DNA of 63,835 nt, filler included, from Reclinomonas americana ATCC 50394 (taxonomy: Eukaryota), in assembly GCA_048213135.1 (NCBI GenBank). It is 11 parts of 5 records of this genome, joined end to end, with 100 filler letters (N's around TTAATTAATTAA, not from the genome) between each part and the next. Parts side by side here need not be neighbours in the genome. Positions count along the whole stretch, not along the records: positions 1 to 25,002 come from PS015638.1; positions 25,103 to 37,129 come from PS015639.1; positions 37,230 to 42,404 come from PS015639.1; 8 more parts are not named here. One strand, 5' to 3'. Below are positions 8,104-40,385 of the stretch, in pieces. Below the pieces are notes generated by a model. It ran no database searches, was not told the DNA's origin, and saw only the letters and a program-made list of their open reading frames with translations. Made by a program: the position numbers and the translations under genes. The stretch's first letter is position 1; every line of letters starts with the position of its first letter.

Positions 8104-14884
<6,781 letters not shown>

Positions 14885-15034: not shown

Positions 15035-16374
15035 ATGGGCTCTCTCTTCAGTTTCGGTCGCCGCAAGTCGCGCCCACCAACGCCCACCACAGCAGCAACG
15101 GCCGCCACAACGGCCGCCATCGACGATGACGTGTTGGCGCTGAGCGAGTCCGACGTGGCCGGGTGGACAGTGGTGTCGATTGGTGGCGATCGTCGTCGCT
15201 CACAGCGACTGGAGTTGGCCGCCAGTGCCAGTGCTGGTGGTGACTCACCAGTGCCGGTGGCGGCGACTGGTGGATCTGCGTCATCGTCGTCGGCGCTATT
15301 TGCGGCGGTTGTGCGCAGTCGACGATTGCGGTGTGCGAGCTGCACGGATAGTGGTGATGCGCAGGGGTGTTATCAGTTGACGTGTGGGCATGGCGTGTGT
15401 CGCGAGTGGTGAGCTTTCTCTTGTTGTGCCGTCGTCTTGTTGTTCGGTCTTTGCCCATTGCGCAACAGCATCGTGAATCTGTTGGAGCAACACGTGCGTC
15501 CGGGTGTCGCCGAGCCCATTCGGTGCTTGTCTAGTGGATGCCGTGCAGGCGAGCTTCTCGTCCTTTCTTTCTTCTTCTCTTGCAGAGTGCTCATTCGCTC
15601 GCTGATTGGCAGAGATGGACGACTTGGCCATCATGCACGCGTGCTCGGATCGACCGCAGTTGAAGCCGCTGCTGGATGCGTATGGTGACATTCTCGATCG
15701 TTGGTATCTGGCGCAACATGCGCGGCGGTGTCCCAATGTGAGTCGGCGGCGTCGTCGTCGTCTCTCTGTTTCAGTCTGCGACTTACAGTGTGCTCGCAGT
15801 GCAATCGGGAATCGGTGCTGGAGAATCCGTCCACGCGTCAGGCCGTGTGCAGCTGCGGGACCAAGTTTTGCGTGCGCTGTGGGGCGCGATGGCGCAAGTG
15901 GAGCGGCAGTGGTGCTTGTGGAAATCCCGACTGCATTTCGCCGAATGAGTTGCTGAAGACGTGCGAGGAAGTGGTTGCGTTTTTTTTTTCCTTTGTGGAC
16001 TTGTGCTCGTCTCGCGATGTTGGCACTCACACACACACACGCAGCATGTGTGGCCGCACGAGGCGTCACGCGACAAGAAGGTTCCACGACTGCGTGCCTG
16101 CCCCAAGTGCCACAGAATACAAGGTGAGTCGAGTGCGTGTGTGCCGGCTTCTCTTGTCTGTCGCGGCTCACGCCTGCGGCATCGATCAGAGTACAAGGAG
16201 GGCTGCAAGCACATCATGTGCCAAGACAACCTGTGTGCCACCGAGTACTGCCTGCGCTGCTTGGCCATCAAAGGCGACGATGGATGGCCCGTCAGCTGCC
16301 GCGGCAGCGACCCGTCCGTGCAGGACTATCGATTTGCGTGCAACGTGGCCGCACGACAGAGATTGCCCGAATAG
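15035..16374 (+). CDS. RBR E3 ubiquitin ligase unit 1 (MGSLFS leader-RING1-IBR-RING2)
   Basis: RING1 CASC..CGHGVCREC..CLSSGC; IBR CPNC..CSCGTKFCVRC; RING2 RACPKCHRIQEYKEGCKHIMCQDNLCATEYCLRC; 5 introns. Confidence 0.9.
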
Positions 16375-16554
16375 TCAGACCGGTGGTGTTGTGTAGTTGT
16401 AATCTGTCGAATCGCACCTGCATTGCGTGCTCCACTTCACTTTGCACGTTGGATTCACGGCACCGACTGTTGTTGTCAGCTTTGTTGTTTTTCCACTCTC
16501 TAGAACGCAAAAAGCACACCCACCCCCCTGCGCTTGCACAGACTCATAAGACCG

Positions 16555-17998
16555 ATGGGAAACTTCTTCAACCGTGGCCGTCAAGCGCAAGCGCTTGCCG
16601 CTGCCGCTGACAGCAGTCGCGTGGCTTGCCAGCCTCGTGAAGACACGATTCCCTTGTCGCGGGAGACGCTGATTATCAACGACGCGCAGCATAGGTCACC
16701 GCGTCCAAGTTACGGCGGAAGTACGACGCCTCGATCGGGGCGTGTGTCGCTGAGAGGCCGAGGACCAGTGTTTGCGCTGCTTGAGTGTTCGTCGCGGCTG
16801 CCGTGCGCCAACTGCACCGCCAGTGGAACGACGCTTGGAAAGTCCTCCTATCGGCTGCCCTGCGGTCACGGAGTGTGCCCCGAGTGGTGAGTGGGGGATG
16901 GGCGAATGCGTGTGAACGGATGTGTGTCGTCAGTCGCGATTCGTCGTTGTCAGTTACTCGCTGTCTTCTTTTCTTTTCCTTTGATCAAGACAACCCACCT
17001 ACTGTCTTGCCTTTGTATCTCATTCCATTCTCGCCCCCTCCTGTCGATGCTGTAATTCCGAACATGTTGGTTAAAGCGATACTTCTCGTATTTGGCAGCG
17101 CTGTGGACCTCCTGAAACATCATGTGGACTCCGGCGTCGTGGAACCCATGCGATGCCTCCACAACGGCTGTCGAGCAGGTCAGTGAATTCTCATCAGAGC
17201 GCTGAATCAGGCACTCTTGATTATCACGTACAACACCGCAGAACTGGACGACCTCGTGGTCATGCACGCCTGCTCCTATCTACCTGAGTTGAAAACGACA
17301 CTCGACAGTTACGGAGACATTCTCAACAAGTCGTATTACGACACGCACGCGCGGCAGTGTCCCAATGTGAGTGATGCGCGTCGCGTGCGATCGTCAAAGT
17401 TACTCACTGCTTGGTATGTAGTGCGATCTGCCATGCGTCATGGACAAGAAGCGGTCCACCCGCCGCCAGGCCGTTTGCAGCTGCGGCACCAAGTTCTGTA
17501 TGCGCTGCGGCAACCAATGGCGCAGATGGAGAAGCGGGGGTGCTTGTGGAAACGCTGACTGTAGCCCCCCAAACCCATTGCTGACAACTTGCGAGGAAGT
17601 GGTGAACAAGCAGCGTTGCTACTGACAGGGTCCAAGAGTCGCGCTCAGTATCTCGTGTATCACAGCATGTGTGGCCAAATGAGGCGCCGTGCGACAAGAA
17701 AATTCCTCGACTGCGTGCCTGCCCCAAGTGCCACAGAATACAAGGTGAGTCCAGTGCGTGTGTGCCGGCTTCTCTTGTCTGTCGCCGCTCACGCCTGCGG
17801 CATCGATCAGAGTACAAGGAGGGCTGCAAGCACATCATGTGCCAAGACAACCTGTGTGCCACCGAATACTGCCTGCGCTGCCTGGCCATCAAAGGCGACG
17901 ATGGATGGCCCGTCAGCTGCCGCGGCAGCGACCCGTCCGTGCAGGACTATCGATTTGCGTGCAACGTGGCCGCACGACAGAGATTGCCCGAATTGTGA
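16555..17998 (+). CDS. RBR E3 ubiquitin ligase unit 2 (MGNFFN leader)
   Basis: Same exon structure as unit 1; RING1 CANC..CGHGVCPEC; RING2 exon nearly identical to unit 1. Confidence 0.9.
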
Positions 17999-18109
17999 GG
18001 CGGTGTATACGGTGTTTGAGTTGTAGACCTGCAGTAATGTACAGAAAGGAAGTTGTCGAATCGCGCCGGCATTGCGCGGTACACGTTGCATTCGTTGTTG
18101 GCAGCCCTT

Positions 18110-21100
18110 TCACTCGGCAGGCACCTCCATGCAACACGACTCCAGTCCGTGGCCGGCGATCCACACCTGAGCGACCGACTCGACCACGTGTGCCGTCATC
18201 GTGCGCACACTGCTAATGTGCACCACCGACTCGCACACGGCTTCCACGGACGATTCTGCCGAGCGCCACGTGCACAGCCGCTGCGCAGAGTGTGAGGTCC
18301 ACGGTAGACCGACACGAGTAGAACACGACGCAACTCGATCACCGCCGACGCTGATTACGCGATCGGCACTCAGCAGAGCGACGCCTCGCACAGCCGCCCA
18401 GTGCGCCTCCTCCTGGCGACACTGCTCGACGATGCGCGCCGAGAGTGGCTCTGCGGCGAGAATCAATGAGCACGCTGCCTTCGCCAACACTTCTCCGTCA
18501 TCAATGTGGAACGTGCCTTCGTCGCGGTCGATTACCGCCACATCGGTCACACACACCGCCTGGTCGTCACCGCCGGTGACCACACGAATCCATGTCGATG
18601 CACCGACTGCCGCGGCACTCACACAGTTCACGCCGGATTGGTGTATCCGTTCGTGCTGACCGACACGACAACAATGAGCTGGCTGCCAACATTTTCTCTC
18701 GTATATATGAATGACGAACCAACAATGGCTCCAATCGACGAGCCTCTCCGTCAGCGCGCACACGAGTCACGTCGTAGATTGCCAGAGTACCGTCCGTGCA
18801 GCCAGACAGCAGCAGCTTTCGCGCGCGTTCGCCATATCCAACACTCAGCTGGCACAAGCACAGCACCACACCGGCACACTGACTCTCACTGTAGGCCACC
18901 ATTGGCAGCGGTTGTGGCCGTGGGCATTGATGAGGCTCGTGCGGCAACGCAAACAGCTTGACACGTCCGTCGGATGCTCCCGTGGCGAGAATCGACTGGT
19001 CGGCATCGTTCTCGAGCACGCACATGGCGTACATGCGATATTGCGCGGCACGATCGTCACCGTCATCATCGTCGTCACCTTCCGCCATCTCACAGTCGGG
19101 CCATACCGCTGCCAGCAGTCGCCCATGCGCAGTCAGCTCGCCAGTGTGTCGACTGACCTTCCAAAGCTGTACCAGCTCGCAATGGCCGCCAGTGGCGAGC
19201 AACACCGAGACATCGTCCTCCGCGACTGTTGCATGGTTCAGTGACATGCAGACGCACTTCAGCAGGGAGTGGATGTTGAGACTCTTGAACGGAACCTTTG
19301 GCACAGCACCGCCACGCTCCATCATGCGTCCACACGGCCGACATGTGCTGCACCGGTTGATCTTCACCGCCCCGATGAGCATACGACATGACGGCGCTGT
19401 CCTCGCCACATGTCACCACCAAGGTGCCAACGTCCGCGCTCATCACCAGCACACCATGCACGTGCAAGTGGTGCGCTCGGTCACCCAATTCGTGTACGAA
19501 TGACACGGGAGCTGGCGGCTGCGTTGCCAATACACGCAGGACTGTTCCGTATGCATCGGCAGCAGCATATGATCGACCTCCGTCCACGACGCGAATCGAG
19601 TGACACCGCCGATCAAGTGGCACGGAGAACAACTGGAGGTGAGGGTGAGCGACTGTGCATCTGCGTTGGAGCACCGACAGCACGCACTGCTTGCCCGTCA
19701 CCTCCGTCAAACACTCGCACTTGATCCCCTAAGTACGAGAGAAGGCACTGGGTGAGGGCAAGTGTAGTGCTGAGAGACGTCGAATGCGGTACTGCACCCT
19801 TGATTCCAATGCCCACAACGTGCCCGCTGCTTGTCGTCACAAGGCGCGTGATGGAGCTGACATGTGCCGAAAAGTGAGTGCGCTCCTCTACGTTGCCGGT
19901 GGCGCCATCTTCCGCAATCGACACGCGACACAGAAAGGCATCGCCGCCGCCAGTCACCAACTCGCTGCGCTCGGTGTGCCACAACAGAGAGTGAATCGGG
20001 TGCTGGGATCACAATGAGTTCACGAAAGTGGAGAAGAGTGGCGATAAATGGTCCACGAAACTCCATCGTGCACCCGCGGGATGGAGCAGAGATGCCGCCC
20101 GAGTGCCCAATCGTAGACATGCACATTTCCGCGCACGTCACCCACAAATAGCCAGGTTTCGCGCGCGTGCTCGCAGGCAGAGAACACTCGTTGCCTCCGT
20201 GGCGTGCAAAAGGAGGCAGCAACACACACCTATTGGGGATAGGTGAGAAGCAAAAGAAGCAAGCATTTTGGAGGAGAGATACGCAAACTGCACCTGAGCT
20301 GCCGTGACGGTCAACAGGGCGACATGACCTTCTGTACTGGCAACTGCAAGACGTGCTGGCGAAGTCCACCACATGCTAAACACAGAAGTGTGCTCCGAAA
20401 ACGCATCGATTGTAATGGTGTCATCCTGCGTGTGGCAATGAGAGGAAATGGTAACTCCTTCTGAGTGTTTTCGACGTACCCCATCAACGTCCCCGAGAGC
20501 CACTGCCCCGCTGGAGTAGCCGACGGCCATAAGCATTCCTTGCGTCTCCTGCACAGCCAGTGCAACCACGCCATCGCGGCCAGTGGCAGTGAACAGTGGC
20601 AGCAATTGGACCGCACCACTGCGGCCCACACGCACCACTCGACTGCAGCACGTGTGTGTGTGTCAGTGGAGAGCTGGCATGGAGATCAAAAGTGGTTGCA
20701 CACGTACCCCGACGTGAGCGAGACGACAACAGTCTCCGCGTCTGCACACAGCACTACGTGACGCACGCGGCCTCCAATGTCCGCAAGATCGACACGCAGA
20801 ATTTCCACTGCGAAGTGCTCATTCATTGGCAAACGCGCGCCAGGCCAGAGACGACGACGCAGGAGACAAACCTGGTTCCCTCCACACGTCGCGCACATTC
20901 CACACACGAATCACACCATCATCACCTCCCGAAGCCTGCATGACATGGTGAGCAGAATGGCCAACTATGCACTCACCAATTTTTGCTATGAGGAGACGCA
21001 CCACACACCCTCCATTTTCCACTGGAGTCACACATCGCAACGAACCCTTGTGGCCTAGGCGGATGCATGCAGTCAGCCACACACACACAGTTACTCACAG

Positions 21101-22285
21101 GCATGCACATTGCAGAACAGACGCACATACACACACACAGAGAGAGAGAAAGGCACTCCTATGTGCTCACGTTGCAGAACAGACGCACCACGAAACACGT
21201 GCCTCGCAGCACCCCCGTCAGCGACGCTCCACAACCGAACAGTGGCATCCTGCTCGACTGGTCAATTTGTCGCGTCGATGCAACGAGTGCCAACAATTCA
21301 CACATACCTCCGACACGGAGACCAGCACTTCGCTCGGCAACAAAAACGACTGCCACACTCGACTTTCGTGCCCTCGCACAGCCATGCACTCGACAAGATC
21401 ACGGTCGACTGCTCTGTGCGTCACTCAACGATTAGAGAGACAGCCGGCTGCCTTGCTCAATATACTCTGCGGATCCACGCACTCTCTCCGCCACACTCGC
21501 ATGGTGCGCCCCTCAGAGCACGTGCACAACACACATCCATTGTCGCTCCAGCTGACGTGAAACACGGCACCCTGACAGTTGGTGAGGCCACACATTTGCA
21601 AGAGAAGCGAGAGTGAATAAAGGCACACACCTCGTGACCTGCTAACCTCTGGTGTGGTTCCAACGACCGCCCCGGTCGGTATACCAACACATTCGAGCAG
21701 GTGGTGCCTGCTGCCACCCACACATCCGCCCACGAATCACCACAAACAGCCATCGAATACCTGATCAAAGAACGATGAGCCGAGCTGTACGTACCATCAC
21801 CACGATGGATGCATAGCACGCAACAACAAACACGACGGTCGCAATCGCACCACGCGAAGCTCGCCTTTATCCGTCACATCCCAGCAGCCAACCGCATTAC
21901 GAGCAAATCCAATCACCGCCACCTGCTCCTCACAACAGTAATGGACAGTGTGCACCCAGTGTGGCAACTCCTCGCGCAGCGCCACCACACGCAGTCCATC
22001 CTCCACGCGCACAGCAGCCACCGAATACTCTCCTCCCACGATCACTGTTCCCAGTCCAGCACCAGCAATGCAGTGAGCGCGGAACGGAAGACACAGCTCA
22101 GCGTGCAACAGGCCACTGGTGACACTCCACACTCGAAGCAAGGGTCCACAGGCTGCAATGCAAACTCATCGATGAAACAAGCAAGTATAGGTGGGGATGG
22201 CCGGGCAAACACACACACCGCTCAACAGCAGAGTATCGTCCTCCTTGCCAACCCATGCCACACAAGTCACTGCACCGAGGTGCAT
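18110..22285 (-). CDS. WDR6: WD repeat protein 6 / Trm734 (tRNA 2'-O-methyltransferase cofactor)
   Basis: VWVAAGTTCSNVLVY..RLAGHE|GAVFHVSWS..LCTCSEGRTMRVW and C-terminal HQSGVNCV..VVTGGDDQAV..AHWAAVRGV..QRLCTW match the WDR6/Trm734 pattern. Confidence 0.75.
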
Positions 22286-22385
22286 GCCTCACCGCACTCG
22301 ATTGATCGATTGCTGTCCTGTGCCTAGCTCACTCACACTCCGCTGCTGTCCACTGCGCGCACACACTCGCACGCACACACACGCA

Positions 22386-24872
22386 ATGGGCACCTCCAGC
22401 TCCTCCGACAAGTGTGCGTCCACCTCTCCGCCTTCCCTCTGCGATTGTGACTGTATCTCTGTGCTCAACACGGACACTCACCACGCAGCATCAAAGAAGC
22501 ACTCCGGTGGATCGCGGCCGGTCTCTGCGCGACAGTCGGCCTCTGTGGAGGCCTCTGCACAGCAGCTCGCGGGTCCGTTTGCACATCACTCGTCCGCCTC
22601 TGCGTTTCGAACACTCATTTTTGTGGGTACAGCCTCGCTGATGAGACCTGCCAGCGCACACCCGGCATCGTCGCCACCACCTGTGCCACCACGAGATCGA
22701 CAAGGTGAGGTTTGCGATTGTTTCTCACTCACTCACACGAGCGCTCATTGCTTGCTGGATTTGCAGCCGCACGAGTCGCTGCGGACGTGGATGCGCTGGC
22801 CGAGTTCAGCGGCCTCTTTGACAGTGTGCGGCATCCTGCGCCTTCGGCGACCCGCCGATCACCGCCACCACCTCCGCCGCCTGCTCGACCACCGCAGTTG
22901 CAGTCGGCGCCTCCGGTGCCACCGCGACCGTCAGTGGGCTCCTCGAACGACCTCGGCCTGCGGAGTCTGTTTGAGGAGAACTCGCCTGCTGCTGCTGCTG
23001 CTGCTGCTCCGGCGAGGGCGCCCGCTGTGCCACCGCGTCCGGGTAAGTCGCTGCACGGTTGTCGGTCACCGCGCGCGCTTGTGTGCAACTTACCGTCGTT
23101 GCAGTAAGCTCGGCCTCGGCCGAGGCCAGACGTGTCGACATGGAAGCGCTGGCAGAGTTTNNNNNNNNNNNNNNNNNNNNNNNNNNNNNNNNNNNNNNNN
23201 NNNNNNNNNNNNNNNNNNNNNNNNNNNNNNNNNNNNNNNNNNNNNNNNNNNNNNNNNNNNNNNNNNNNNNNNNNNNNNNNNNNNNNNNNNNNNNNNNNNN
23301 NNNNNNNNNNNNNNNNNNNNNNNNNNNNNNNNNNNNNNNNNNNNNNNNNNNNNNNNNNNNNNNNNNNNNNNNNNNNNNNNNNNNNNNNNNNNNNNNNNNN
23401 NNNNNNNNNNNNNNNNNNNNNNNNNNNNNNNNNNNNCGGGAGCTCGCCGATTGGCTGAAGGTGCCGGATGTTGCACACTGTCAAAGAGGCCTCCGAACTC
23501 CGCCAGCGCGCCCATGTCAACTCGTCCTGCGGGTGTGCTCACTGCGCGCAGCGAATGAGGGGAGGGAGGTGCAGGAGAATACGACAATAGAGAATCCGCT
23601 CCCACCTTCACGCTGTCGCGGTGGAACCACCGGAGCAGAAGGCTGCTGAGGCCGGGCCGGAACTGGTGCTGCTGGCGAAGGACGGCGGTTCACAGAGGGC
23701 GCCGGGTGCCGAACGCTCTCCACGAGACCACCNNNNNNNNNNNNNNNNNNNNNNNNNNNNNNNNNNNNNNNNNNNNNNNNNNNNNNNNNNNNNNNNNNNN
23801 NNNNNNNNNNNNNNNNNNNNNNNNNNNNNNNNNNNCACCAGCGCGCGCGCCGGTGGCCCCGGTGCGAGCAGCGCCTGCCGCAGCCGCTCGCCAGCCAAGT
23901 ACGTTAGGGTTGGAGGAACTCTTCGCGCAACATTCGCCGCCACAACAACAGCAGCGGCCTGCGGTACCGACAGCTGCTCAAACGCCAGCTGCCACACCTG
24001 CTCAAACTCCAGCAAGCACGCAGAAAGCGGCATCGCTCCCGTCAGGTGTTGTTGTCAATCGCACTCTGCAGTGCGCCAACTGTACCGGTCGCAATCTGGA
24101 AGTGTGCTACCAGTTGCCGTGCAGGCATGGATTGTGTCAGGAGTGGTGCGTTGCTTTCCTGCATCACTGCCGTGCCTCAGCTACTCACCATTTGTATGCG
24201 TAATAGTGTGGCCGACATGCTGCATTCGCACATTGCCACGGGAGCTGGCGATGCGATGCGCTGCTGCGGCACAGCTTGTCGAATCGGTATGTACCTGCAC
24301 AGCCGAGTTTCACCCATTGTTCCATGTTAGCTGAAGTTTGATCGCGCAGAAATCCCCGACTCGGTCATTCGTCATGCTTGTGCGGGGAAGCCGCATCTGC
24401 GGCATGATCTCGACGCCTACGAAGACATTCTCAACATGGCGTTCTTGAGCAGCAACACCAAGCCGTGCCCGACGGTGTGTGTGACTGCACGCGCACTTTA
24501 TCTTCTCTGTTAAAAGCTGACTTCTTCGATGACACAGTGTGGCTCCATGTGTATGCCCGAGGATGCTGCGTTTCAAGATGCCGAGTGTCCGTGTGGAACT
24601 CGATTTTGCTTGCGGTGCGGAGGAAGGTGGATAAGTGGTGCCGGATCGCGTGGTCCGTGTGGCAATCGCGACTGCATGTCTTCCAATGATGTGCTCGGCT
24701 CGTGCGAGTGGGTGGTGCGTGCGAAGACTGTGGAAGCGCAGAGACCGCGGACAGCTCTGCTCAACCAGTCGACTGTGTGATTGTGTTGTGCAGAGAATGT
24801 GGCCGTTCGACAAGCCCACCGACGATCCGGTTCCACGATTGCGTGCGTGTCCGCGATGTCATCGCATTCAAG
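22386..24872 (+). CDS. RBR E3 ligase unit 3 (MGTSSS leader plus three Pro-rich ALAEF modules; last exon lost in gap)
   Basis: RING1 CANCTGRNLEVCYQLPCRHGLCQEC; IBR CPTCGSMC..CPCGTRFCLRC; RACPRCHRIQ, then (AG)n and a gap. An internal contig (23437-23732) appears inverted. Confidence 0.82.
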
Positions 24873-24918
24873 GTATTACATGCAGAGAGAGAGAGAGAGA
24901 AAAGAGAGAGAGAGTGAG

Positions 24919-24985
<67 letters not shown>

Positions 24986-25046
24986 TAGTAGTCGTGTAGT
25001 CGNNNNNNNNNNNNNNNNNNNNNNNNNNNNNNNNNNNNNNNNNNNN

Positions 25047-25058
25047 TTAATTAATTAA
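25047..25058. other. Artificial six-frame-stop gap linker TTAATTAATTAA (also at 37174, 42449, 43639, 46855, 52267, 55438, 58139, 60781, 62576)
   Basis: The identical 12-mer is always centred in a ~100-nt N block. Confidence 0.97.
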
Positions 25059-25106
25059 NNNNNNNNNNNNNNNNNNNNNNNNNNNNNNNNNNNNNNNNNN
25101 NNGCAG

Positions 25107-25994
25107 TTTGACCGACATGCTGCAATCGCACGTTGCCACGGGAGCTGGCGATGCGATGCGTTGCTGCTTCACGGCTTGTCGAATTGGTACGTTCTTATGT
25201 CCAACGTGTTACTCACTCTTCTTCTACGATTGACTGTTGTGCTTCATTATTGCAGTCATCCCCGACACGGTCATTCGACATGCTTGCGCGGGGAAACCAC
25301 ATCTGCGGCGCGATCTGGACGCCTACGAAGACATGCTCAACATGGCATTCCTGAACAGCAACACCAAACCTTGTCCAACGGTGTGTCACGTCTGCTTGTG
25401 CAAAGTCTCCGCCGACTGTCGCTGACAGCAGTGATTGCACAGTGCGGGACCATGTGCATGCCCGAGGACAGCTCGTTCCAGGATGCCGACTGTCCATGTG
25501 GAACTCAGTTCTGTTTGCGGTGTGGTGGACGATGGGCGAGTGGTTCGGGATCGCGTGGTCCCTGCGGCAATCCAGGCTGCATGTCAGCTGCAGACCTGCT
25601 CATCGCGTGCGAGTGGGTGGTGAGTGTGTGTGATATCGATACGGCAGCACGTAAGCATTCGCGCTTTCTCACCACGTCGTGCAGCTCATGTGGCCCTTCG
25701 ACAAGGCCACCGACGATCCGGTTCCACGCCTGCGTGCGTGTCCGCGATGTCATCGCATTCAAGGTACTGGTGAAGGTTGTTCGTGCCGCATATGCGCCTC
25801 TCTCTCTCACTCATCGTTATCTGGTGGCAGATCACAATGACGGCTGCAAGCACATGAAGTGCCAGGAGCCGACGTGCCTTGTCGAGTACTGCATGCGATG
25901 CTTGGCGGTGAAGGGGCCGCAGGGTTGGCCCGACACGTGCAGGAATTATGACTTTGCATGCCCCGTGGCTCCTTGTCAGCAGTTGCCGAAATGA
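25107..25994 (+). CDS. RBR E3 ligase unit 4 (5' part lost in gap)
   Basis: LTDMLQSHVATG..IPDTVIRHAC..KPCPT|CGTMC..FCLRC..RACPRCHRIQDHNDGCKHMKCQEPTCLVEYCMRC..VAPCQQLPK*. Confidence 0.85.
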   Translation, partial: FDRHAAIARCHGSWRCDALLLHGLSNWYVLMSNVLLTLLLRLTVVLHYCSHPRHGHSTCLRGETTSAARSGRLRRHAQHGIPEQQHQTLSNGVSRLLVQSLRRLSLTAVIAQCGTMCMPEDSSFQDADCPCGTQFCLRCGGRWASGSGSRGPCGNPGCMSAADLLIACEWVVSVCDIDTAARKHSRFLTTSCSSCGPSTRPPTIRFHACVRVRDVIAFKVLVKVVRAAYAPLSLTHRYLVADHNDGCKHMKCQEPTCLVEYCMRCLAVKGPQGWPDTCRNYDFACPVAPCQQLPK

Positions 25995-26440: not shown

Positions 26441-26485
<45 letters not shown>

Positions 26486-26701
26486 AGTACATGCGCGTCT
26501 CGAGCTCCGACCATGTTAATTTGCATTGCGATCATTCACATGCATCGACGCATTCTCTCTCTCTCTTGCACACACCTACGCATGCACCTCACAGCGGCGC
26601 CTCTCATTCGCGTCGTATCGCTTGCCCTCTCTCTCTTTCTCCCTCCCACGTACACGGTCTCTCTCTCCCTGTCTTGTCATCCTCCTTCCTCTCCCTCCCA
26701 G

Positions 26702-27736: not shown

Positions 27737-27774
<38 letters not shown>

Positions 27775-29953: not shown

Positions 29954-30026
29954 AGCAGAGGGCACTACAATGACGACAGTGGTGAAGAAAGTGGTCGGAC
30001 CTTGTCCCATTCCATCACTTCATATC

Positions 30027-31115
30027 ATGTCACGCTCTCCTGCTCCCTTCCTCCCCTCCAAGTGCCTTCTTGGACACGCTGCATGGGTGCGGTCCCTTGC
30101 CATCACTCCCGACGATGAGTACGTTGTCAGCGGAAGCGTAGACAACACAGTGCGAGTGTGGTCGCTGGCGAGCGGAGAGCAAGTACGACTGCTGAAGGCT
30201 CACACTGGAGGCGTATGGTCTGTTGCCATCACCCCCGATGGTCGACGCATAGTGAGTGGTGGCGGTGACAAGAAGGTGCGAGTGTGGTCGTTGGCAAGTG
30301 GTGATGAACTGCGACATTTGGTGGGGCACACTGGTGTGGTGCGTTGTGTCGCCAGCGCTCCTGACGGGCAGCGCGTTGCGAGTGGCAGCGATGATGCGAC
30401 AGTGCGTGTGTGGTCGCTGGCGAGCGGAGAAGAGGTGCGACGACTGGAGGGACACACTGGCTGGGTGTACTCGGTTGCCATCACACCCGACGGTCAGCAA
30501 GCTGTGAGCGGGGGTTTGGACAACACGGTGCGAGTGTGGTCTCTCACGAGTGGAGAGGAGGTGTGCAGATTCCAGGGGCACACTGGTTTCGTGTGGTCCG
30601 TGGCCATTACTCCCGACAGTCAGCACATTGTGAGTGGGGGTGGCGACAAGAGAGTACGACTGTCGTCGCTGGCGGCGAATGGAGAACAGGTGCGACAGTT
30701 TCAAGGACACACCAGTGACGTGTTCTGCGTTGCCGTCACTCACAACGGCCAGTGCATTGTGAGTGGAAGTGACGACGAGACCGTGCGTGTGTGGTCGGCA
30801 ACAACAGGAGAAGAAGTGCAGCGGCTGGAGGGACACACAGAGCGGGTGTATTCTGTTGCTGTCACTGCCGATAATCAGCACATTGTGAGTGGTGGTCTTG
30901 ACAAGGCAGTGCGAGTGTGGTCCACTCCTCGCGGTCTCGCAAGGCAGGAGCTGCAAGCTGCGCGTTTGGCGATGCTGGCGGTGCGGGAGCTGCAGCCGGT
31001 GGATGACGAACCCGATTCACGGTGTCTTCCGGAGATGGCGCTGCGTTGCTTCATTGTCGAGGATGCTGCTGTTGTGCTCTATCGGTGCAGCGTGGACTTT
31101 GAGTTGCACATGTGA
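30027..31115 (+). CDS. Intronless 7-repeat WD40 beta-propeller with highly similar repeats
   Basis: Seven ~42-aa repeats with consensus GHTxxVxSVAITPDGQxxVSGxxDxTVRVWSLASGEEVRRLE, plus a ~60-aa C-terminal tail. Alternative in-frame ATG at 29970. Confidence 0.93.
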   Translation: MSRSPAPFLPSKCLLGHAAWVRSLAITPDDEYVVSGSVDNTVRVWSLASGEQVRLLKAHTGGVWSVAITPDGRRIVSGGGDKKVRVWSLASGDELRHLVGHTGVVRCVASAPDGQRVASGSDDATVRVWSLASGEEVRRLEGHTGWVYSVAITPDGQQAVSGGLDNTVRVWSLTSGEEVCRFQGHTGFVWSVAITPDSQHIVSGGGDKRVRLSSLAANGEQVRQFQGHTSDVFCVAVTHNGQCIVSGSDDETVRVWSATTGEEVQRLEGHTERVYSVAVTADNQHIVSGGLDKAVRVWSTPRGLARQELQAARLAMLAVRELQPVDDEPDSRCLPEMALRCFIVEDAAVVLYRCSVDFELHM

Positions 31116-31283
31116 AGGTGCATGCGCAAGTGAAGTCTCAGAATGCGACGCAGTGAGTGTTGGTGTTGAATAAAAGGTGCAAACAACGAACGAGTCGTGG
31201 ACGGACCCCTCACCAAGAAGCGGAAGTGTCCCGTCCCACTACACATCACGCTGCGATCTCATATTGTGTCCGCCAATGTCGGC

Positions 31284-34144
31284 ATGACCGCTGCTCGGCC
31301 CGACATGAGGCACGGTGCGTGTGCGAGGGCCCTCACATACACTGTGCAATCGTTGCTGACTGCATGTGCTGCAGCTGTTGCAACTTCCGACGATGTGTTT
31401 GGTGGCGACATATTTGCTCCTCCTCCTCTTTGGCCTCCGAGTCAGCCGTCACGGGCCCCAGTGGACGCGCCACAGCGACCAGCTGAGCCAGCGGCGGCTG
31501 CGCTGTTTGCTCCTTTTCCTCCTCCGCCTCCGAGTCAGCCGTCACGGTTACCAGTCGCTGCACCATCACGGCGACCTGCTGTGCCTGCAGCAGATGACCC
31601 GTTTGGCGGTGACGTGTTTGCTCCTCCTCCTCCTCTTCCGCCTTCAAGTCAGCCGTCGCGGATACCAGTGGCTGCACCATCACGGCGGCCTGTTGAGCCA
31701 CCAGCAGATGACCCATTCGGTGGCTTTGTCGCTCCTCCTCTTTGGCCTCCGAGTCAGCCATCGCGGATACCAGTGGCTGCACCATCACGGCGACCTGCTG
31801 TGCCGCCAGCAGATGACCCACTTAGTGGTGACATGTTTGCGCCTCTTCCTCTTCCNNNNNNNNNNNNNNNNNNNNCCTGTTGAGCCACCTGCAGATGACC
31901 CATTCGGTGGTGACATGTTTGCGTCTCCTCCTCTTCCGGCTTCAAGTCAGCCGCCACGGGCCCCAGTGGCTGCACCATCACGGCGGCCTGCTGTGCCACC
32001 AGCAGATGACCCACTTAGTGGTGACATGTTTGCTCCCCCTCCTCCTCTTCCGCCTTCAAGTCAGCCGCCACGGGCCCCAGTGGCTGCACCATCACGGCGG
32101 CCTGCTGTGCCACCAGCAGATGACCCACTTAGTGGTGACATGATTGCTCCTCCTCCTCCTCTTCCGCCTTCAAGTCAGCCGCCACGAGGACCAGTGGCTG
32201 CACCATCACGGCGACCTGTTGAGCCACCTGCAGATGACCCATTCGGTGGTAACATGTTTGCGTCTCCTCCTCTTCCGCCTTCAAATCAGCCGCCACGAGG
32301 ACCAGTGGCTGCACCGCCACGGCGACCTGCTGTGCCGACAGCGGATGAGCTGTTTGGTGGTGACATGTTTGCTCCTCCTCCTTCTCTTCCGCCTTCACGT
32401 CAGCCGTCGCGGACTGCACCATCACGGCGACCTGCTGTGCCGACAGCGGATGACCCACTTAGTGGTGACATGTTTGCGCCTCTTCCTCTTCCGGTTTCAA
32501 GTCAGCCGCCACGAGGACCAGTGGCTGCACCGCCACGGCGACCTGCTGTGCCGACAGCGGATGAGCTGTTTGGTGGTGACATGTTTGCTCCTCCTCCTTC
32601 TCTTCCGCCTTCACGTCAGCCGTCGCGGACGCCAGTGGCTGCACCATCACGGCGACCTGCTGTGCCGACAGCGGATGACCCACTTAGTGGTGACATGTTT
32701 GCGCCTCTTCCTCTTCCGGTTTCAAGTCAGCCGCCACGAGGACCAGTGGCTGCACCGCCACGGCGACCTGCTGTGCCGACAGCGGATGAGCTGTTCGGTG
32801 GTGACATGTTTGCGTCTCCTCCTCTTCCGGCTTCAAGTCAGCCGCCACGAGGACCAGTGGCTGCACCATCACGGCGGTCTGCTTTGCCAGTAGCATATGA
32901 GCTGCTTGACGGTGACATGTTTGCTGCTGTACCACCTCCGAGTCAGCCGTCACGGACCCCAGTGGCCGCACTAGCACATGTACAGCGGCCTGCTGAGCCA
33001 GCGGCGGCTACGCTGTTCGCTCCTTTTCCTCCTCCGCCTCCGAGTCAGCCGTCACGGACCCCAGCTGCAAGAACGCCAGCAAGCTCGCAGAAAGCGGCAT
33101 CGCTCCCGTCAGGTGTTGTTGCCAATCGCACTCTGCAGTGCGCCAACTGCACCGGTCGCAATCTGGAAGTGTGCTACCAGTTGCCGTGCAGGCATGGATT
33201 GTGCCAAGAGTGGTGCGTTGCTTTCTGTATCACTGCCGTGCCTCAGCTACTCACCTTCGCATGCGTAATAGTGTGGCCGACATGCTGCATTCGCACATTG
33301 CCACGGGAGCCGGCGATGCGATGCGCTGCAGCAATACGGGTTGTCGAACTGGTTTGCACATGCACAGTCGAGTTTCACCCACCGTTCCGCGTTAGCTGAA
33401 GTTTTATGGCGCATGCGCAGAAATCCCCGACTCGGTCATTCGACATGCTTGTGCGGGGAAGCCGCATCTGCGGCGTGATCTGAACGCCTACGAAGACATT
33501 CTCAACATGGCGTTCTTGAGCAGCAACACCAAACCGTGCCCAACGGTGTGTGTGATTGCACGCGCACTCTGTCTTCTCTGTGAAAGCTGACTTCTTCTAT
33601 GACACAGTGTGGCTCCATGTGCATGCCCGAGGATGCTGCGATCCAAGATGCCGAGTGTCCGTGCGGAACCCGATTTTGCTTGCGGTGCGGAGGAAGATGG
33701 ATCAGTGGTGCTGGATCGCGTGGTCCGTGTGGCAATCGCGACTGCATGTCGCCGGCAGATCTGCTGGCCACGTGCGAGTGGGTTGTGAGTGCGATGATCT
33801 GCGAAGAAGCAAAGGCCCTTTCCTTACTCACCACACATTGTGCAGCGCATGTGGCCCTTCGACAAGGCCACTGACGATCCCGCTCCACGATTGCGTGCTT
33901 GCCCACGATGCCACCGCATTCAAGGTTAGTGGTATTATGTTCCCAAACGTTTGTGTCTTCTGCTCATTGTCGTGCGACAGACCACAACGACGGCTGCAAG
34001 CATATGTCATGTCAGGAGCCGACATGCCTTGTCGAGTACTGCATGCGATGCTTGGCAGTGAAGGGGCCACAGGGCTGGCCAGCCTCGTGCATGAGCTATA
34101 ATTTTGCTTGCCCTGTGGCTCCTTGTCAGCAGCTGCCCACATAG
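31284..34144 (+). CDS. RBR E3 ligase unit 6 (N-terminal Pro-rich DDPFGGDMF tandem repeats)
   Basis: The repeat exon leads into a RING1 almost identical to unit 3. RING2 GCKHMSCQEPTCLVEYCMRC; stop TAG at 34142-34144. Start codon inferred. Confidence 0.87.
31390..33060 (+). repeat. Coding minisatellite, ~14-16 units of ~105-114 bp (35-38 aa)
   Basis: Unit ~ADDP(F/L)(G/S)GDMFAPPPPLPPSSQPPRGPVAAPSRRPAVP; DELFGG and DDPLSG variants alternate at ~32340-32800. Confidence 0.92.
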
Positions 34145-34425
34145 TGCAACAGATCCATAATGAATGAATAACGAATTATAATGAGTTGTGAGGACTTCGG
34201 AGATATCGACGTCGCAGAGTATGTCTCTCGTCCTTCGCGTGTTCCCTCATACGTAACAACGAAGTGCTGTGCTTCCATCGCCTCCTTGAGTACACACACG
34301 CACAAAGAGCATTACACTGAGAGCGTAGAGAGGAAGCAATGAGGTGCGTCTCTCTCTCTCTCTCTCTCGTCAAGATCAAGTGGCGTTCATCACCCTCACT
34401 CCTCTCACTCTGTGCCTGCCTGCAG

Positions 34426-36884
34426 TGCGCGCTCAGCACGACGAAANNNNNNNNNNNNNNNNNNNNNNNNNNNNNNNNNNNNNNNNNNNNNNNNNNNNNN
34501 NNNNNNNNNNNNNNNNNNNNNNNNNNNNNNNNNNNNNNNNNNNNNNNNNNNNNNNNNNNNNNNNNNNNNNNNNNNNNNNNNNNNNNNNNNNNNNNNNNNN
34601 NNNNNNNNNNNNNNNNNNNNNNNNNNNNNNNNNNNNNNNNNNNNNNNNNNNNNNNNNNNNNNNNNNNNNNNNNNNNNNNNNNNNNNNNNNNNNNNNNNNN
34701 NNNNNNNNNNNNNNNNNNNNNNNNNNNNNNNNNNNNNNNNNNNNNNNNNNNNNNNNNNNNNNNNNNNNNNNNNNNNNNNNNNNNNNNNNNNNNNNNNNNN
34801 NNNNNNNNNNNNNNNNNNNNNNNNNNNNNNNNNNNNNNNNNNNNNNNNNNNNNNNNNNNNNNNNNNNNNNNNNNNNNNNNNNNNNNNNNNNNNNNNNNNN
34901 NNNNNNNNNNNNNNNNNNNNNNNNNNNNNNNNNNNNNNNNNNNNNNNNNNNNNNNNNNNNNNNNNNNNNNNNNNNNNNNNNNNNNNNNNNNNNNNNNNNN
35001 NNNNNNNNNNNNNNNNNNNNNNNNNNNNNNNNNNNNNNNNNNNNNNNNNNNNNNNNNNNNNNNNNNNNNNNNNNNNNNNNNNNNNNNNNNNNNNNGAGGG
35101 CCTGGAAAATGGCCGACGAAGGCGACGTGGATGCACTGCGCGAGTTGGTGGCACGAGAGGGCGGACAGGCACTGCTGCGGAGAGAGGAGATGCAAGAGTT
35201 CGATGGCGGATCGGCCTTTTACTTTGCCGCCTACCGAGGCCACCTGGCGGTGCTGGAGTACCTCACGGAGGAGAGTGGAGTCGGGCCACAGCTGGCACAG
35301 GCGGTGAATGATAACGGATGGACGCCACTGATGGAAGCCGCTGACAATGGGAGACTGCCAGTGGTGGAGTGGTTGCTTGCCGACGAGCGACGCTGTCCAG
35401 CCGAGGCCGTGCGCGCAGTCAGCAATGATCGGTGTGCGTTCCCGCAATCCACTGCGCTGCACTTTGCGGCGGCCAACGGCCACGAGGCGATTGTGCAGCT
35501 GCTGGCCACGCGGTATCCGGATCTCGTTCCGATGGTCACCTTGGCCGGCAAGACGGCAGCTCAGTGTGCACGCGAGGCGGGCAAGCGACAAGTGGCTGAG
35601 CTGCTCGATCGCCTTGCTGCGCAGTCATCGCCACGCCAGCAGCGCTCCCCTCGTCGTCCGCAGCCGTCGAGGTCGGTGATTGTCTTCAGTGAACTCTCTC
35701 TGTCTCTCGTGGAACTCATTTTTTNNNNNNNNNNNNNNNNNNNNGTGTGCTGCGGGATGCTTCACAGTGCTCGCGGGCAGCGGCGAAGAAAGGCCTGGGA
35801 GCTGGCGCGAAGGGGCGACGTGGATGCGCTGCGTGACTTGGTGGCGAGTGAAGGCGGGCAGACGCTCCTCGACCGGAACGAGATGCAGGAGTACGGCGGC
35901 GGCTCCGCCTTTTACTTTGCCGCCTGGCAAGGCCATCTCGACGTGTTGGAGTTCCTGATGGAGGAGAGTGGCGTCGGTCCGCAACTTGCCCAGACTGTCA
36001 CCGATCATGGCTGGACGCCACTGATGAAGGCAGCCGACAATGGACACTTGCAAGTTGTGGAGTGGTTGCTGGCGGATGAGCGGCGCTGTCCGCCGCAGAC
36101 GGTGCGGGCGGTCGCGCATCATACGTATACCTACCCACAATCCACGGCATTGCATTTTGCCGCATCCCAAGGCCACGAGGCGATTGTGCGGCTGCTGGCC
36201 ACTCGCCATCCCGATCTCATTCCCATGGTCGACTGCAACGGGAAGACGGCGGCGCAGTGGGCACGCGACGCGGGCAAGCGTGAAGTGGCTGACTTGCTCG
36301 ATGGTCTCACGGTATGGCCATCACGTGCGCCACAGCCACCATCACCACGACCGCCATCACGACAGGCACCGCCGCCACCGCCACCGCCACAACCAGTGGT
36401 GCAACCGGTGGCGGAAAGTGCAAGTCGCGGTAGTACGAGGGTACCAGGTGTTTTGCAGAGTCGCACCGCCAAGTGCTTCAATTGCACCGGCACCGACCTC
36501 GACAACTGTTACGAGCTGCCGTGTCGACACGGAGTCTGCGGTGATTGGTGAGCTGTGACGGCAGTCTTGTGTCTTTGATTATTCCCTCACCCTCTTTTTC
36601 ATGTCGCGCAGCTTGCTTGAGATTCTGCGCACCCACATCTCGAGTGGGGCCTCTGATCCACTGCGCTGCGGAGGCACTGGGTGCAAGCGAGGTGAGAATA
36701 CGTACATGCTCTGTATTCGAAGAGTGTTGTTTGCTGAGTCTCATGATCACACAAATCAGACGTCCCCGACACCGTGGTCCGGCATGCATGCGCCGGCAAG
36801 GCGAACATGCGCCAGACGCTGATTGCGTACGACGACCTCCTCAACATGTACTTTGTGACGCAGATTTGCAAGCCGTGCCCGTCG
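34426..36884 (+). CDS. RBR E3 ligase unit 7 (two ankyrin-repeat blocks-RING1; IBR/RING2 lost in gap)
   Basis: Duplicated blocks with SAFYFAA..GWTPLMxAADNG..STALHFAAxxGH..GKTAAQ; RING1 CFNCTGTDLDNCYELPCRHGVCGDC; ends at KPCPS before a gap. A possible first exon starts at ATG 34181. Confidence 0.85.
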
Positions 36885-37010
36885 GTGAGTCGCATGAGTT
36901 TTACTACGCGTGGCTGAGGGTGGGCGACTGACTCTCGCATTGTTGTTGTTGTTGTTCATGCTGTTGTTATTGTTGCGGTGATTTGTTCTTGCTGCTGCTG
37001 CTGCTGCTGC

Positions 37011-37058
<48 letters not shown>

Positions 37059-37229
37059 CGTCGTTGTCGTTGTTGTTGATATTGTTCTTGTTCGTCTTCT
37101 TCTTCTTCTTCTTCTTCTTTCTTTTCTCTNNNNNNNNNNNNNNNNNNNNNNNNNNNNNNNNNNNNNNNNNNNNTTAATTAATTAANNNNNNNNNNNNNNN
37201 NNNNNNNNNNNNNNNNNNNNNNNNNNNNN

Positions 37230-37284
<55 letters not shown>

Positions 37285-37341
37285 TCTTCTTCTTCTTCTT
37301 CTTCCCCCTCTCACCCCCTTCCCTCCCTCCCTCCCACACAG

Positions 37342-39609
37342 CCCCCACCCGATCAATCTCCCGCGATGACGCCGAGGTGAGAGCTCCACGTCGAGCGGCT
37401 GTCGCCGAGCAGGTGCTGGGCACCACCACTCGAGCGCGCCCGGCTGCCGTGGCTGTCGGCGGCGGCACTCGTCCGAGCACGGCTGGCACACAGCGTGCTC
37501 CACCGGCCGGAGACGAGAGAGCGCAACGCGACTTTGACGCGTTCCTGCGGCGTGCACGCGATCGCATGGAGAGAAGCGAGCCTCGGGAGCGATCGGACTT
37601 GTTGGCTGTGGCGGAGCCGGAGCCGGCAGCGCGACGGGATGCTGCTCCTCCTCAAAATGCTCGGGTGCGGCCATCGCGATCGCCTACTGAGACGCGTCTG
37701 CGTGCTGCGCTCGACCTTGACGATGCGGAGCTACGTCCGAGGGTGCCCGCCGGTCGTTCTGGCTCCGGGACCGTGGGCACGGGTGCAGGGCGGCGTGCGG
37801 GTGACGTTTTTGGCTCTCGTCCAGTGCGGCGTTCACAGTCGCCGCCTGCACGCAATGCAGATGAATTCTTGCGCCTTGGCGTTGCTGGCGGGGAACGCAA
37901 TCGCCCTGCTGGTGCTGGTGAGGGTGGCCGTCATCGCCTTGAGCTGTCTCTTGCGGGGAGCGATGACCGGCTTCCTTCGCGTGCTGAACGGCGCCGTAAC
38001 GAACTGCACGAATTCCTGCGTCCGTACGCCGCCACGGGCACGGGTGGGAGTGGACGCCGCGGCGCCCCTGCCGTCTTGTCCGCGCGCGACGCCACTTCTG
38101 ACCCTACCTTGCGGCGTTCAGTATCACCCCCACGATTGGATGACCGTCCTCGCCTTGGTGGTGGCGGTGGTGGTAGTGGTGGTAGTGGTGGCAGTCGCCC
38201 TGCCCGCGCTGGCATGGCCGCGCGCGAAGTCGCCTTTGAGCGCGGTATTCGTGACGCTGCCGTGCGGCGATCGGCGTCGCCTCCACGATTGGATGATCGC
38301 CTTCGTGCTGGTAGTGATGGAGGTGGCAGCCGCCCGGCCCTTGGCGGCTTGCCCTCACGCGACGCCGCTTCCGGGCTTCGTGTTCCGTCGCGCGAAGCCG
38401 TGCAGCAGCCGGAGATTCTTCCTCGCCGCGCTTTCCGATCCGTGCTTGGCCGCGATGCTGGTGGCGGGGCCAGCGGCGCAAGCGCTGCCGCCGGCGCCGC
38501 GGGTCGTCGCATGAGTATCAACTCTAGTAGTTCGAGTGCGGCCAAGGTCGTGCAGAGTCGCACCGCCAAGTGCTTCAATTGCACCGGCACTGATCTCGAC
38601 AACTGCTACGAGCTGCCGTGCCGACACGGTGTCTGCGGCGATTGGTGAGCTGTGACGACAGTCTTGTGCCTTACTTTTTTTCGCTTATCCTTTGTTTTTG
38701 ATGTCGCGTAGCTTGCTTGAGATTCTGCGCACCCACATCTCGAGTGGGGCCTCGGATCCACTGCGTTGCGGAGGCACTGGGTGCAAGCGAGGTGAGAATG
38801 TGCGCATGCTCTGCAATCGAAGAGTGATGTTTGCTGATTTTGTCGCATTAACAGATGTTCCGGAAACCGTGGTCCGTCATGCGTGCGCCGGCAAGCCGGA
38901 CATGCGCGAGACACTGCTTGCGTACGACGACCTCCTCAACATGTATTTCGTGACGCAAATCTCGAAACCGTGCCCGTCGGTGAGTGCCCTGGAATGCGAT
39001 GCGTTTGGCTGAGGGTGGGCGACTGAATCTCGGCGTTGTTGCTGTTGTTGTTGTTGTCGTCGTCGTCATCGGTGTCATCGTTGTCGTCATCTTCGGTATT
39101 ATTTGTTGTTGTTGTTGTTGTTGTTGTTGTTCTTATTGGTCTTTTTTTGTTGTTGTTGCTCTTCGTCTTCTCCTCCTCCTCCTCCCTCTTGTTCTCCTTG
39201 TTCTTCTTCTCCTTCTCTTCCTCCTTCTTCCTCCTTCTTCCTCCTCTTCCTCCTTCTTCTTCTTCTTCTTCTCCTTCTTGTTCTTCTTCTTGTTCTTCTT
39301 GTCTTCTTCTTGTTCTTGTTCTTCTCCTTCTTTTTCTTCTTCTTCTTCTTCTTGTTCATTTTTCTTCTTCTCCTCCTCCTCCTCCTTCCTCGTTCTTCTT
39401 CTCCTTCTTCTTCTCCTTCTTCTTCAATGTCTTCTTCTTCTTGTTCTTCTTCTTGTTCTTGTTCCTCTTGTTCCTCTTGTTGTTGTTGTTGTTCTTCTTC
39501 TCCTTCTTCTCCTTGTCCTTCTTCTTCTTTTTCTTCTTCTTCTTCTTCGTTGTCTTCCTCTTCTTGTTGTTGTTGTTCTTCTTCTTCTTCTTCTTCTTCT
39601 TCTTCTTCT

Positions 39610-39684
<75 letters not shown>

Positions 39685-40385
39685 TTCTTCTTCTTCTTCT
39701 TCTTTTTCTTCCTCTTTTTCTTGTGGTTTTGTTGTTGTTGTTGTTGTTGCCGTCGTCAATTCTCGTCGTCGTCGTCGTCGTCTTCGTTATTGTTCACTGT
39801 CTCTCTTTCTCTGCTTCTTCCCCTCTTTCTCCAGTGCGGCGCCATGTGCATGCCCGAAGACACCTCGTTTCAGGATGCCGATTGTCCGTGTGGCACCCGA
39901 TTCTGTTTGCGCTGCGGTGGACGGTGGGTGAGCGGCGCTGGATCGCGTGGTCCCTGCGGCAATCCAGGCTGCATGTCAGCTTCGGACCTTCTCACCACGT
40001 GCGAGTGGGTGGTGAGTGTGTATGGCCTTCGAAGAAGCAAAGGCCCTTCTCCTTGCTCATCGCACGTTGTGCAGCGCATGTGGCCCTTCGACAAGGCCAC
40101 TGACGATCCCGCTCCACGCCTGCGTGCGTGTCCACGATGCCACCGCATTCAAGGTACTGCTGGGAAAGGCATCATATTCTCTTGCGTTGTTTATCTTGTG
40201 CTCATTGTTATCTGGTGGCAGATCACAATGACGGCTGCAAGCACATGAAGTGCCAGGAGCCGACATGCCTCGTTGAGTACTGCATGCGATGCTTGGCGGT
40301 GAAGGGGCCGCAGGGCTGGCCGGCCTCGTGCAGGAACTATGACTTTGCTTGTACAGTCGCCCCTTGTCAGCAGTTGCCACGTTGA
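37342..40385 (+). CDS. RBR E3 ligase unit 8 (Arg/Gly/Ser-rich low-complexity N-terminus; start not seen)
   Basis: RRSxSPP-rich exon, then a RING1 near-identical to unit 7; IBR and RING2 GCKHMKCQEPTCLVEYCMRC; stop TGA at 40383-40385. Confidence 0.87.

Follow-up and report, generated by a model that had tools for sequence, protein, structure and literature searches.

The stretch of DNA analysed here (63,835 nt, hereafter the window), from Reclinomonas americana ATCC 50394 (assembly GCA_048213135.1), consists of 11 parts joined end to end, and all gene models and coordinates are given in the numbering of the whole stretch. A six-frame motif scan and tblastn searches with the core sequences, both carried out over the whole window, have revealed an array of eight units coding for RING1-IBR-RING2 (RBR) proteins, named u1 to u8 in their order along the stretch and all located on the plus strand between positions 15035 and 40385, with the RBR pieces themselves confined to 15332-40382. 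These units join a conserved core to varied N-terminal regions, and they are likely to represent a tandem expansion specific to this lineage, with no fewer than eight paralogous genes encoding compact RBR-type E3 ubiquitin ligases.

Organization of the array and gene models

A preliminary description of this DNA had claimed eight co-oriented RBR units in about 25 kb. The number of units and their common orientation were recovered, although only five of the eight units (u1, u2, u5, u6 and u8) include all three domains, and the contiguity and the overall span are unproven because two contig linkers lie inside the array. The first exon, which encodes RING1, is present in seven units, the IBR exon also in seven and the last, catalytic exon in six. 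The missing portions are the last exon of u3, exon 1 of u4 and exons 4-6 of u7, the breaks all coinciding with contig ends (25002 for u3, 25103 for u4 and 37129 for u7): u3 stops in intron 5 and its contig finishes inside a (GA)n run, the contig of u4 begins 4 nt before exon 2, and that of u7 finishes inside intron 3.

Exon models were drawn by eye from three-frame displays and checked by script. The intron positions shared among the units, already proposed in the preliminary description, were borne out: the 35 modelled introns are found at five positions common to the units, with identical phases. All of them end in AG and 34 start with GT, the remaining one being intron 2 of u1 (15549-15612), which in this model uses a GC donor where u2 has GT; an alternative GT-AG pair in this intron would add three residues. 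Intron length is 55-79 nt in 33 of the 35, the exceptions being intron 1 of u2 (212 nt) and intron 3 of u8 (855 nt of low-complexity sequence). The internal exons measure 80, 125, 177 and 79 nt in every unit, with the third of these reduced to 174 nt in u1 and extended to 180 nt in u2. The exons of all units are free of stop codons and each of the modelled introns has usable splice sites.

Table 1. Features of the RBR array of R. americana in the numbering of the window.
Feature	Position	Strand	Exons or evidence
u1, complete RBR gene	15035-16374	+	exons 15035-15408, 15469-15548, 15613-15737, 15800-15973, 16045-16123, 16190-16374
u2, complete RBR gene	16555-17998	+	exons 16555-16886, 17099-17178, 17242-17366, 17422-17601, 17666-17744, 17811-17998
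u3, 3'-truncated	22386-24872	+	RING1 ends 24145; exons 24207-24286, 24350-24474, 24538-24714, 24794-24872
Contig linker N44-TTAATTAATTAA-N44 between u3 and u4	25003-25102	.	pattern match
u4, 5'-truncated	25107-25994	+	exons 25107-25186, 25256-25380, 25443-25619, 25685-25763, 25831-25994
Pro/Ala-rich open segment	26702-27100	+	80% DNA identity to part of the u5 N-terminus
u5, complete core	28018-29953	+	exon 1 ends 29003; 29072-29151, 29220-29344, 29407-29583, 29643-29721, 29790-29953
WD40 gene inside the array, 381-aa open frame, seven repeats	29970-31115	+	Pfam WD40, E 4.9e-80
u6, complete core	31284-34144	+	exon 1 ends 33212; 33272-33351, 33421-33545, 33608-33784, 33846-33924, 33981-34144
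u7, 3'-truncated	35109-36884	+	exon 1 ends 36547; 36612-36691, 36760-36884
Contig linker N44-TTAATTAATTAA-N44 between u7 and u8	37130-37229	.	pattern match
u8, complete core	37230-40385	+	exon 1 ends 38644; 38712-38791, 38855-38979, 39835-40011, 40075-40153, 40222-40385

In the window, the G+C content is about 50-60%, (CT)n/(GA)n tracts are frequent and N runs number 31. Ten linkers of the form N44-TTAATTAATTAA-N44 start at positions 25003, 37130, 42405, 43595, 46811, 52223, 55394, 58095, 60737 and 62532. This element is a six-frame-stop spacer of the type used for stringing contigs together, so the scaffold is a chain of contigs that may not have been firmly ordered or oriented. Since two of the linkers fall inside the array, both its span and the adjacency of its three blocks rest on scaffolding. 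Units u1 and u2 share one gap-free stretch and u5 and u6 share one linker-free block, and N gaps interrupt the N-terminal regions of u3, u5, u6 and u7. The eight units are a lower bound on the copy number.

The catalytic core

The spliced cores comprise 233-245 residues. RING1 has the full C3HC4 arrangement, C-x2-C-x(9-12)-C-x-H-x2-C-x2-C-x(15-17)-C-x4-C, in the seven units that keep exon 1. The codon of its fifth cysteine is split by intron 1, and the tryptophan placed at the end of RING1 in the preliminary description came from reading the DNA unspliced; once spliced, the split codon specifies the RING1 cysteine. The predicted IBR is composed of a C-P-x-C motif split by intron 3, followed by C-x-C-x4-FC-x2-C and by CGNxxC, a cysteine pattern found in all seven units with this domain. 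The canonical IBR, that of Ariadne proteins included, has H-x4-C as its last zinc ligand pair, whereas the window units have C-x4-C (CGNxxC). RING2, or Rcat, reads PRLRACPxCHRIQ / x-x-x-GCKH[IM]xCQ...C..EYCxRCLAxKG..GWP..C...F-AC-x-VA..Q.LP, and the GCKH motif (a cysteine with a histidine at +2) is invariant in the six units that keep the last exon. The signature CGNxxC, PRLRACP and VAxxQxLP, singled out in the preliminary description, was invariant in the window alignments, and every zinc ligand and the Cys-x-His are kept in the units where the corresponding exon survives.

A profile of the last exon built from six units matched the Rcat domain of ARIH1 (1wd2_A, E 6.1e-4), and seven of the ten matches at E<=1 in the PDB were ARIH1. 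In this alignment GCKHxxC is placed on GGCNHMVC, whose cysteine we take to be the catalytic cysteine of ARIH1. The two cysteines after WP in the window Rcat presumably sit where ARIH1 completes its second Rcat zinc site, a site that, from the window alignments, appears to be all-Cys in the window units. The Ariadne proteins (ARIH1/HHARI and ARIH2), which gave the best PDB sequence match for the Rcat exon, also show the same RING1-IBR-Rcat order, with the catalytic cysteine in G-C-x-H. They differ from the window units in having a C-terminal autoinhibitory domain and a UBA-like or acidic N-terminus, both lacking here; the former is absent because a stop codon occurs no more than about 30 residues past the last Rcat cysteine in all six units with a 3' end.

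Relatives of the window proteins

The last-exon profile was searched against 1.84 billion representative proteins and retrieved 20 at E<=1e-3, of which not one reached 1e-10, with matches covering positions 1 to about 50 of the 53 in the profile and mostly located near the C-terminus of the proteins found. An IBR-family Pfam match at E<=0.01 was present in 19 of them, and 17 pass the curated cut-off; the only protein without such a match, P0020, was discarded as a false positive. Three relatives carry a species name, a single protein of Paulinella chromatophora and a pair from Bolivina argentea, both species being rhizarians, and the group of teleosts and amoebae mentioned in the preliminary description could not be verified.

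Sixteen aligned relatives conserve RVxC..C...FC[WF]xC...W...CGNxxC and RACPxC...H...CKH[MI]xC..C..EFCFxCL...WP..C...C.VAPRQ, so that the CGNxxC end of the IBR and the tail WP..C...C.VAP.Q of Rcat, both invariant in the window alignments, fall in columns that are also conserved in these proteins. When compared with the relatives, the spliced window cores scored 70-85 bits (up to 85.5). Most relatives have a degenerate RING1, of which CGHA is left, whereas the window units and the relative P0008 keep the full C3HC4; most relatives also carry an N-terminal ubiquitin-like domain, in some cases accompanied by a SAM domain, in place of the other N-termini found in the window. A CaaX-like C-terminal box was found in four of the 16 (P0003, CILL; P0005, CTIM; P0011, CIVL; P0017, CTLS). 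Together with the MG leaders described below, these ends point to membrane anchoring as a recurring theme, and both lipid anchoring and the swapping of modules seem, as far as motifs can tell, to recur across the subfamily.

P0008 has a compact build like that of u1 and u2. Its predicted fold (mean predicted local distance difference test score 82.2, predicted template modelling score 0.50) matched RBR ligases in every PDB entry listed (ARIH1, ARIH2, HOIP, parkin, RNF216 and HOIL-1). Of these matches 34 reached E<=1e-3, and the best structural ones were with Ariadne ligases. The template modelling scores were 0.17-0.33 and the amino acid identity 21-25%; the low scores are attributed to flexibly linked domains that are arranged differently. 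In the ESM Atlas, P0008 led to generic RBR/IBR clusters and chordate IBR clusters were the nearest to P0003, both being leads only.

Metagenome contigs yielded four loci, each with one intronless relative of 41-44% identity, and no tandem array was seen among the relatives on these contigs, which at 1.9-5.7 kb are too short to show one. No relative was confirmed on viral contigs searched with patterns from both alignments. Word-index protein searches gave no candidate among longer proteins with the last exon of u5, and returned only two of its own members with the family alignment. No description of this RBR subfamily in protists was found in the literature searched. The subfamily is sparsely sampled and apparently unnamed.

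N-terminal regions

The modules listed in the preliminary description (short MG leaders in u1 and u2, a duplicated Pro/Ala region in u5, DPF/FGGD repeats in u6, ankyrins in u7 and an RRSxSPP-type region in u8) have all been located. The N-terminal region of u1 has 99 residues and starts with MGSLFSFGRRKSR, and that of u2 has 83 and starts with MGNFFNRGR; in both, the first in-frame methionine is followed by glycine. N-myristoylation requires Gly2, a small residue at position 6 and nearby basic residues, a rule that the u1 leader would fit well and that of u2 less well.

In u3, a candidate MGTSSSS start at 22386 is followed by a Pro-rich region, and two N gaps (23161-23436 and 23733-23835) and at least one frame change separate this start from RING1. 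The 296-bp piece left between the two gaps (23437-23732) matches the N-terminal coding sequence of u3 in reverse (83% over 65 nt) and its reverse complement encodes the repeated motif of u3; it is probably a mis-oriented contig. Unit u5 displays an open Pro/Ala-rich frame of 304 residues that extends from a gap at 28017, and the similar segment located upstream (Table 1) represents an additional u5 exon or else what is left of another unit. The N-terminal region of u6 exceeds 600 residues, starts with MT instead of MG, and is interrupted by a 20-N gap (31856-31875); it contains 13 motifs of the DPFGGDMF type, [DE][PLV][FL][GSD]G[DN][MIV][FI], in tandem repeats of 111-114 nt (37-38 residues). 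The ankyrin repeats of u7 (Pfam Ank_2, E 1.5e-42) form two blocks, 74% identical in amino acids, with a 20-N gap (35725-35744) between them, and these blocks may belong to one gene or to two. In u8, an open frame rich in Arg, Ala, Gly and Ser runs from the start of the contig, with its first in-frame methionine at 37566 and three RS.SPP motifs, which resemble the 14-3-3 mode-1 consensus.

A BLASTP comparison among 12 N-terminal pieces, with SEG masking on (compositional Pro-rich likeness being unscored) and with the upstream piece of u6 read in a wrong frame, has revealed three matches only: u3 and u6 share the 13 residues immediately preceding RING1, the u5 region matches its duplicate, and one ankyrin block of u7 matches the other. 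By this comparison the N-terminal regions are unrelated between units, which agrees with the preliminary description of unrelated N-termini on a constant core. The break between the variable and the constant parts falls inside exon 1 and not at an intron.

Paralogy, selection and probable gene conversion

Amino acid identity among the cores ranges from 35 to 95%, with the highest values in the pairs u4/u5 (95%), u7/u8 (94%, over the span from RING1 to exon 3) and u3/u6 (92%), followed by u1/u2 (74%), while u1 or u2 compared with the rest gave 35-50%. According to the Nei-Gojobori method, the ratio of nonsynonymous to synonymous substitutions (dN/dS) was 0.08-0.20 in the eight of ten pairs with computable dS; in those pairs dS ranged from 0.16, in the closest one (u4/u5), to 1.28, and the two remaining pairs were saturated. 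Purifying selection acts on the core. A comparison of this ratio between N-terminus and core is not possible, because the N-termini have been replaced and not diversified by point changes.

In a tree of 21 rows, the seven window units included formed one clade against 14 relatives, with support of 100/99, an outcome of the core phylogeny proposed in the preliminary description that indicates a local expansion. The tree left out u7, the false positive P0020 and, as fragments, P0003, P0010, P0011, P0012 and P0018. The eight units are genuine paralogues. In paired units, DNA similarity starts at a point 20-80 nt ahead of the first RING1 codon and ends 3-4 nt from the stop codon (3 nt after it in u4/u5), and thus the flanks of these units are unrelated. 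Units u3 and u4 are not parts of one gene, since they overlap in exons 2-5 and are only 78-91% identical there.

Identity along the genes is uneven. In the pair u1/u2, identity is 62-72% in exons 2-4 and only 43-44% in introns 2 and 4, whereas it rises to 89-97% over the 3' portion from exon 5 through intron 5 to exon 6, with 97% for intron 5 and exon 6; u8 resembles u4 and u5 only from exon 4 on. This mosaic is the pattern expected of gene conversion, and it suggests that such conversion has occurred among the units.

Neighbouring genes

The start codon of the WD40 gene inside the array is located 17 nt past the stop codon of u5, an arrangement that could mean that the two genes are transcribed together, or that the spacer between them is just very short. 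On the minus strand, a multi-exon gene with weak WD40 matches only lies between u2 and u3 (18100-22100). Upstream of the array, another minus-strand multi-exon gene (8100-14000) comprises a Walker A exon (GPAGSGKT), then an hhhhDGFDE exon, and WD40 repeats. Its NACHT match (E 7.5e-4) reached 19.8 bits against a cut-off of 26.7, and PDB searches returned generic P-loop matches for one exon and none for the other; from its motifs this gene looks STAND/NACHT-like.

Other genes located outside the array are an EF-hand gene (40370-41650, minus strand), DUF1295-type membrane proteins (51000-53031, minus strand; one clear Pfam match and a similar adjacent open frame), a PEMT/ICMT-like methyltransferase (5007-5717, minus strand), a protein-kinase fragment (56128-56754, plus strand) and a tRNA-Trp gene (60372-60444, plus strand). 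The latter, outside the array, was the only result of the search of the window for RNA families and tRNAs.

Discussion

In the array described here, a constant RBR core would be directed to different tasks by different N-terminal regions. RING1 would dock the ubiquitin-charged E2, and the Rcat cysteine would accept ubiquitin from it as a thioester and hand it on to a substrate. The place and the partners of each ligase would presumably be set by the portion of exon 1 that precedes RING1. The MG leaders of u1 (with its basic patch), u2 and perhaps u3 may take these proteins to membranes, and the ankyrins of u7 may bind proteins; u3, u5, u6 and u8 would have long disordered regions, Pro-rich, repeat-rich or Arg/Ser-rich, with short motifs. 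The array would have grown by tandem duplication, gene conversion confined to the gene bodies and replacement of the N-terminus at break points in exon 1. Of these elements, the gene structure, the paralogy, the purifying selection and the assignment to the RBR superfamily are results of the analysis, while catalysis, lipid anchoring, the function of the motifs and any biological role are predictions.

Several observations weigh against this explanation. The exon models are predictions from the sequence, and u1 needs either the GC donor or the three-residue alternative in intron 2. Because of the two linkers and the many N gaps, the order, spacing and copy number of the units are unproven; u3, u4 and u7 are incomplete and could be dead genes, and no start codon was found in the open frame of u5 after the gap at 28017 or in that of u8 from the contig start. 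With regard to the family assignment, single exons stayed below the Pfam IBR cut-offs (20.8 against 24.3 bits for PF01485, E 4e-4, and 17.2 against 27), the match of the IBR exon profile to the IBR of ARIH1 was not significant (E 0.06), and the predicted fold is that of a relative, P0008, instead of a window protein. The Pfam comparison proposed in the preliminary description has thus succeeded with most relatives and not with the single window exons, so membership of the RBR superfamily rests partly on those relatives. Finally, the roles given to the MG, DPFGGDMF-type and RSxSPP motifs derive from consensus rules and may not hold.

Among known systems, ANKIB1 combines ankyrin repeats with an RBR module as u7 does. 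However, from RING1 to exon 3 u7 is 94% identical to u8, which has no ankyrins and groups locally, so that the ankyrin block looks like a local acquisition and not a sign of ANKIB1 orthology, u7 itself being outside the tree. ARIT is described as a previously undefined clade of compact RBR-only proteins found in teleosts, reptiles and monkeys, and in salmon its expression rises strongly on exposure to interferon gamma (PMC12234341). Its proteins are reported to be an RBR module with nothing on either side, in contrast to the 83 to more than 600 N-terminal residues of the window units; ARIT may be the teleost group mentioned in the preliminary description. In Caenorhabditis, ARI1 is reported to be a lineage-specific RBR expansion with a germline role, including three tandem copies in about 7 kb in a predicted operon (PMC6288150), which may be compared with the 17 nt that separate u5 from the WD40 gene. 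The ARI1 copies are full Ariadne-family proteins of identical architecture and without N-terminal swapping, while the window units differ in their N-termini.

An artefact of the assembly is one alternative to the tandem array of paralogues; in that case two or three genes would have been multiplied by haplotypes left uncollapsed or by contigs joined wrongly. The ten linkers with two inside the array, the many N gaps, the reversed piece in u3, the three units cut at contig ends and the pairing of units at 92-95% amino acid identity are all compatible with it. Nevertheless, no pair with computable dS falls below 0.16, and the paired units have unrelated flanks and different N-termini, for which reasons the haplotype reading was rejected; u3 and u4 are also too divergent in their overlap, u1 and u2 are located on a gap-free stretch and u5 and u6 in a linker-free block, so that an artefact is extremely unlikely. 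A real array in which most copies are decaying or non-catalytic, with the N-terminal differences as neutral junk, could account for the three incomplete units, for N-termini of low-complexity, microsatellite-like sequence, and for the start codons not found in u5 and u8. It is highly improbable, because the truncations fall at contig ends and are not mutations, and the low dN/dS, the zinc ligands and catalytic Cys-x-His retained, the usable splice sites and the frames without stops led to the rejection of the pseudogene reading.

The preliminary description had proposed a role in immunity or xenophagy for a diversifying family that pairs variable targeting modules with a constant ligase. In such a ubiquitin-based defence system of a protist, the N-termini would direct the ligase to invaders or to membranes that have been damaged, and the family would diversify under pressure from pathogens. 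None of the evidence obtained here supports this role: the sole selection signal measured is purifying, the NACHT match of the upstream gene is sub-threshold with only generic P-loop matches or none in the PDB, and the viral contigs yielded no relative. Points in its favour are nonetheless the unrelated N-termini on a constant core in a locally expanded clade, membrane-anchor-type signals in window units and relatives, a P-loop/WD40 gene directly upstream and a WD40 gene inside the array. Animal RBR ligases tag intracellular bacteria, a precedent that also favours it. The interferon response of the compact ARIT clade in salmon (PMC12234341), whose kinship to the window units is conjectural, adds to these points. 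The Caenorhabditis ARI1 genes (PMC6288150), on the other hand, provide a tandem RBR expansion that is not immune. Taken together, defence is an unlikely explanation. A broader form of it, an island resembling innate immunity in which RBR ligases tethered to membranes or adaptors, with exchanged targeting regions, would act together with the neighbouring STAND-like gene and the WD40 gene, the ligases sharing an ancient compact-RBR lineage with the interferon-induced ARIT genes of vertebrates, is very doubtful; if it were true, defence by ubiquitin coats built by RBR ligases would date back to early eukaryotes.

The tandem array of paralogous ligases, the reading preferred here, documents a compact RBR subfamily with variant zinc ligands, without a known autoinhibitory domain and with recurrent signals of the lipid-anchor type. 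Knowledge of RBR ligases is extensive for animals and plants but scant for microbial eukaryotes, and the array of R. americana offers a natural experiment in which one catalytic core may have been re-aimed by swapping the region upstream of RING1 within a single exon. Should kinship with ARIT or induction by infection prove true, these genes could possibly bear on the origin of ubiquitin-based cell-autonomous immunity.

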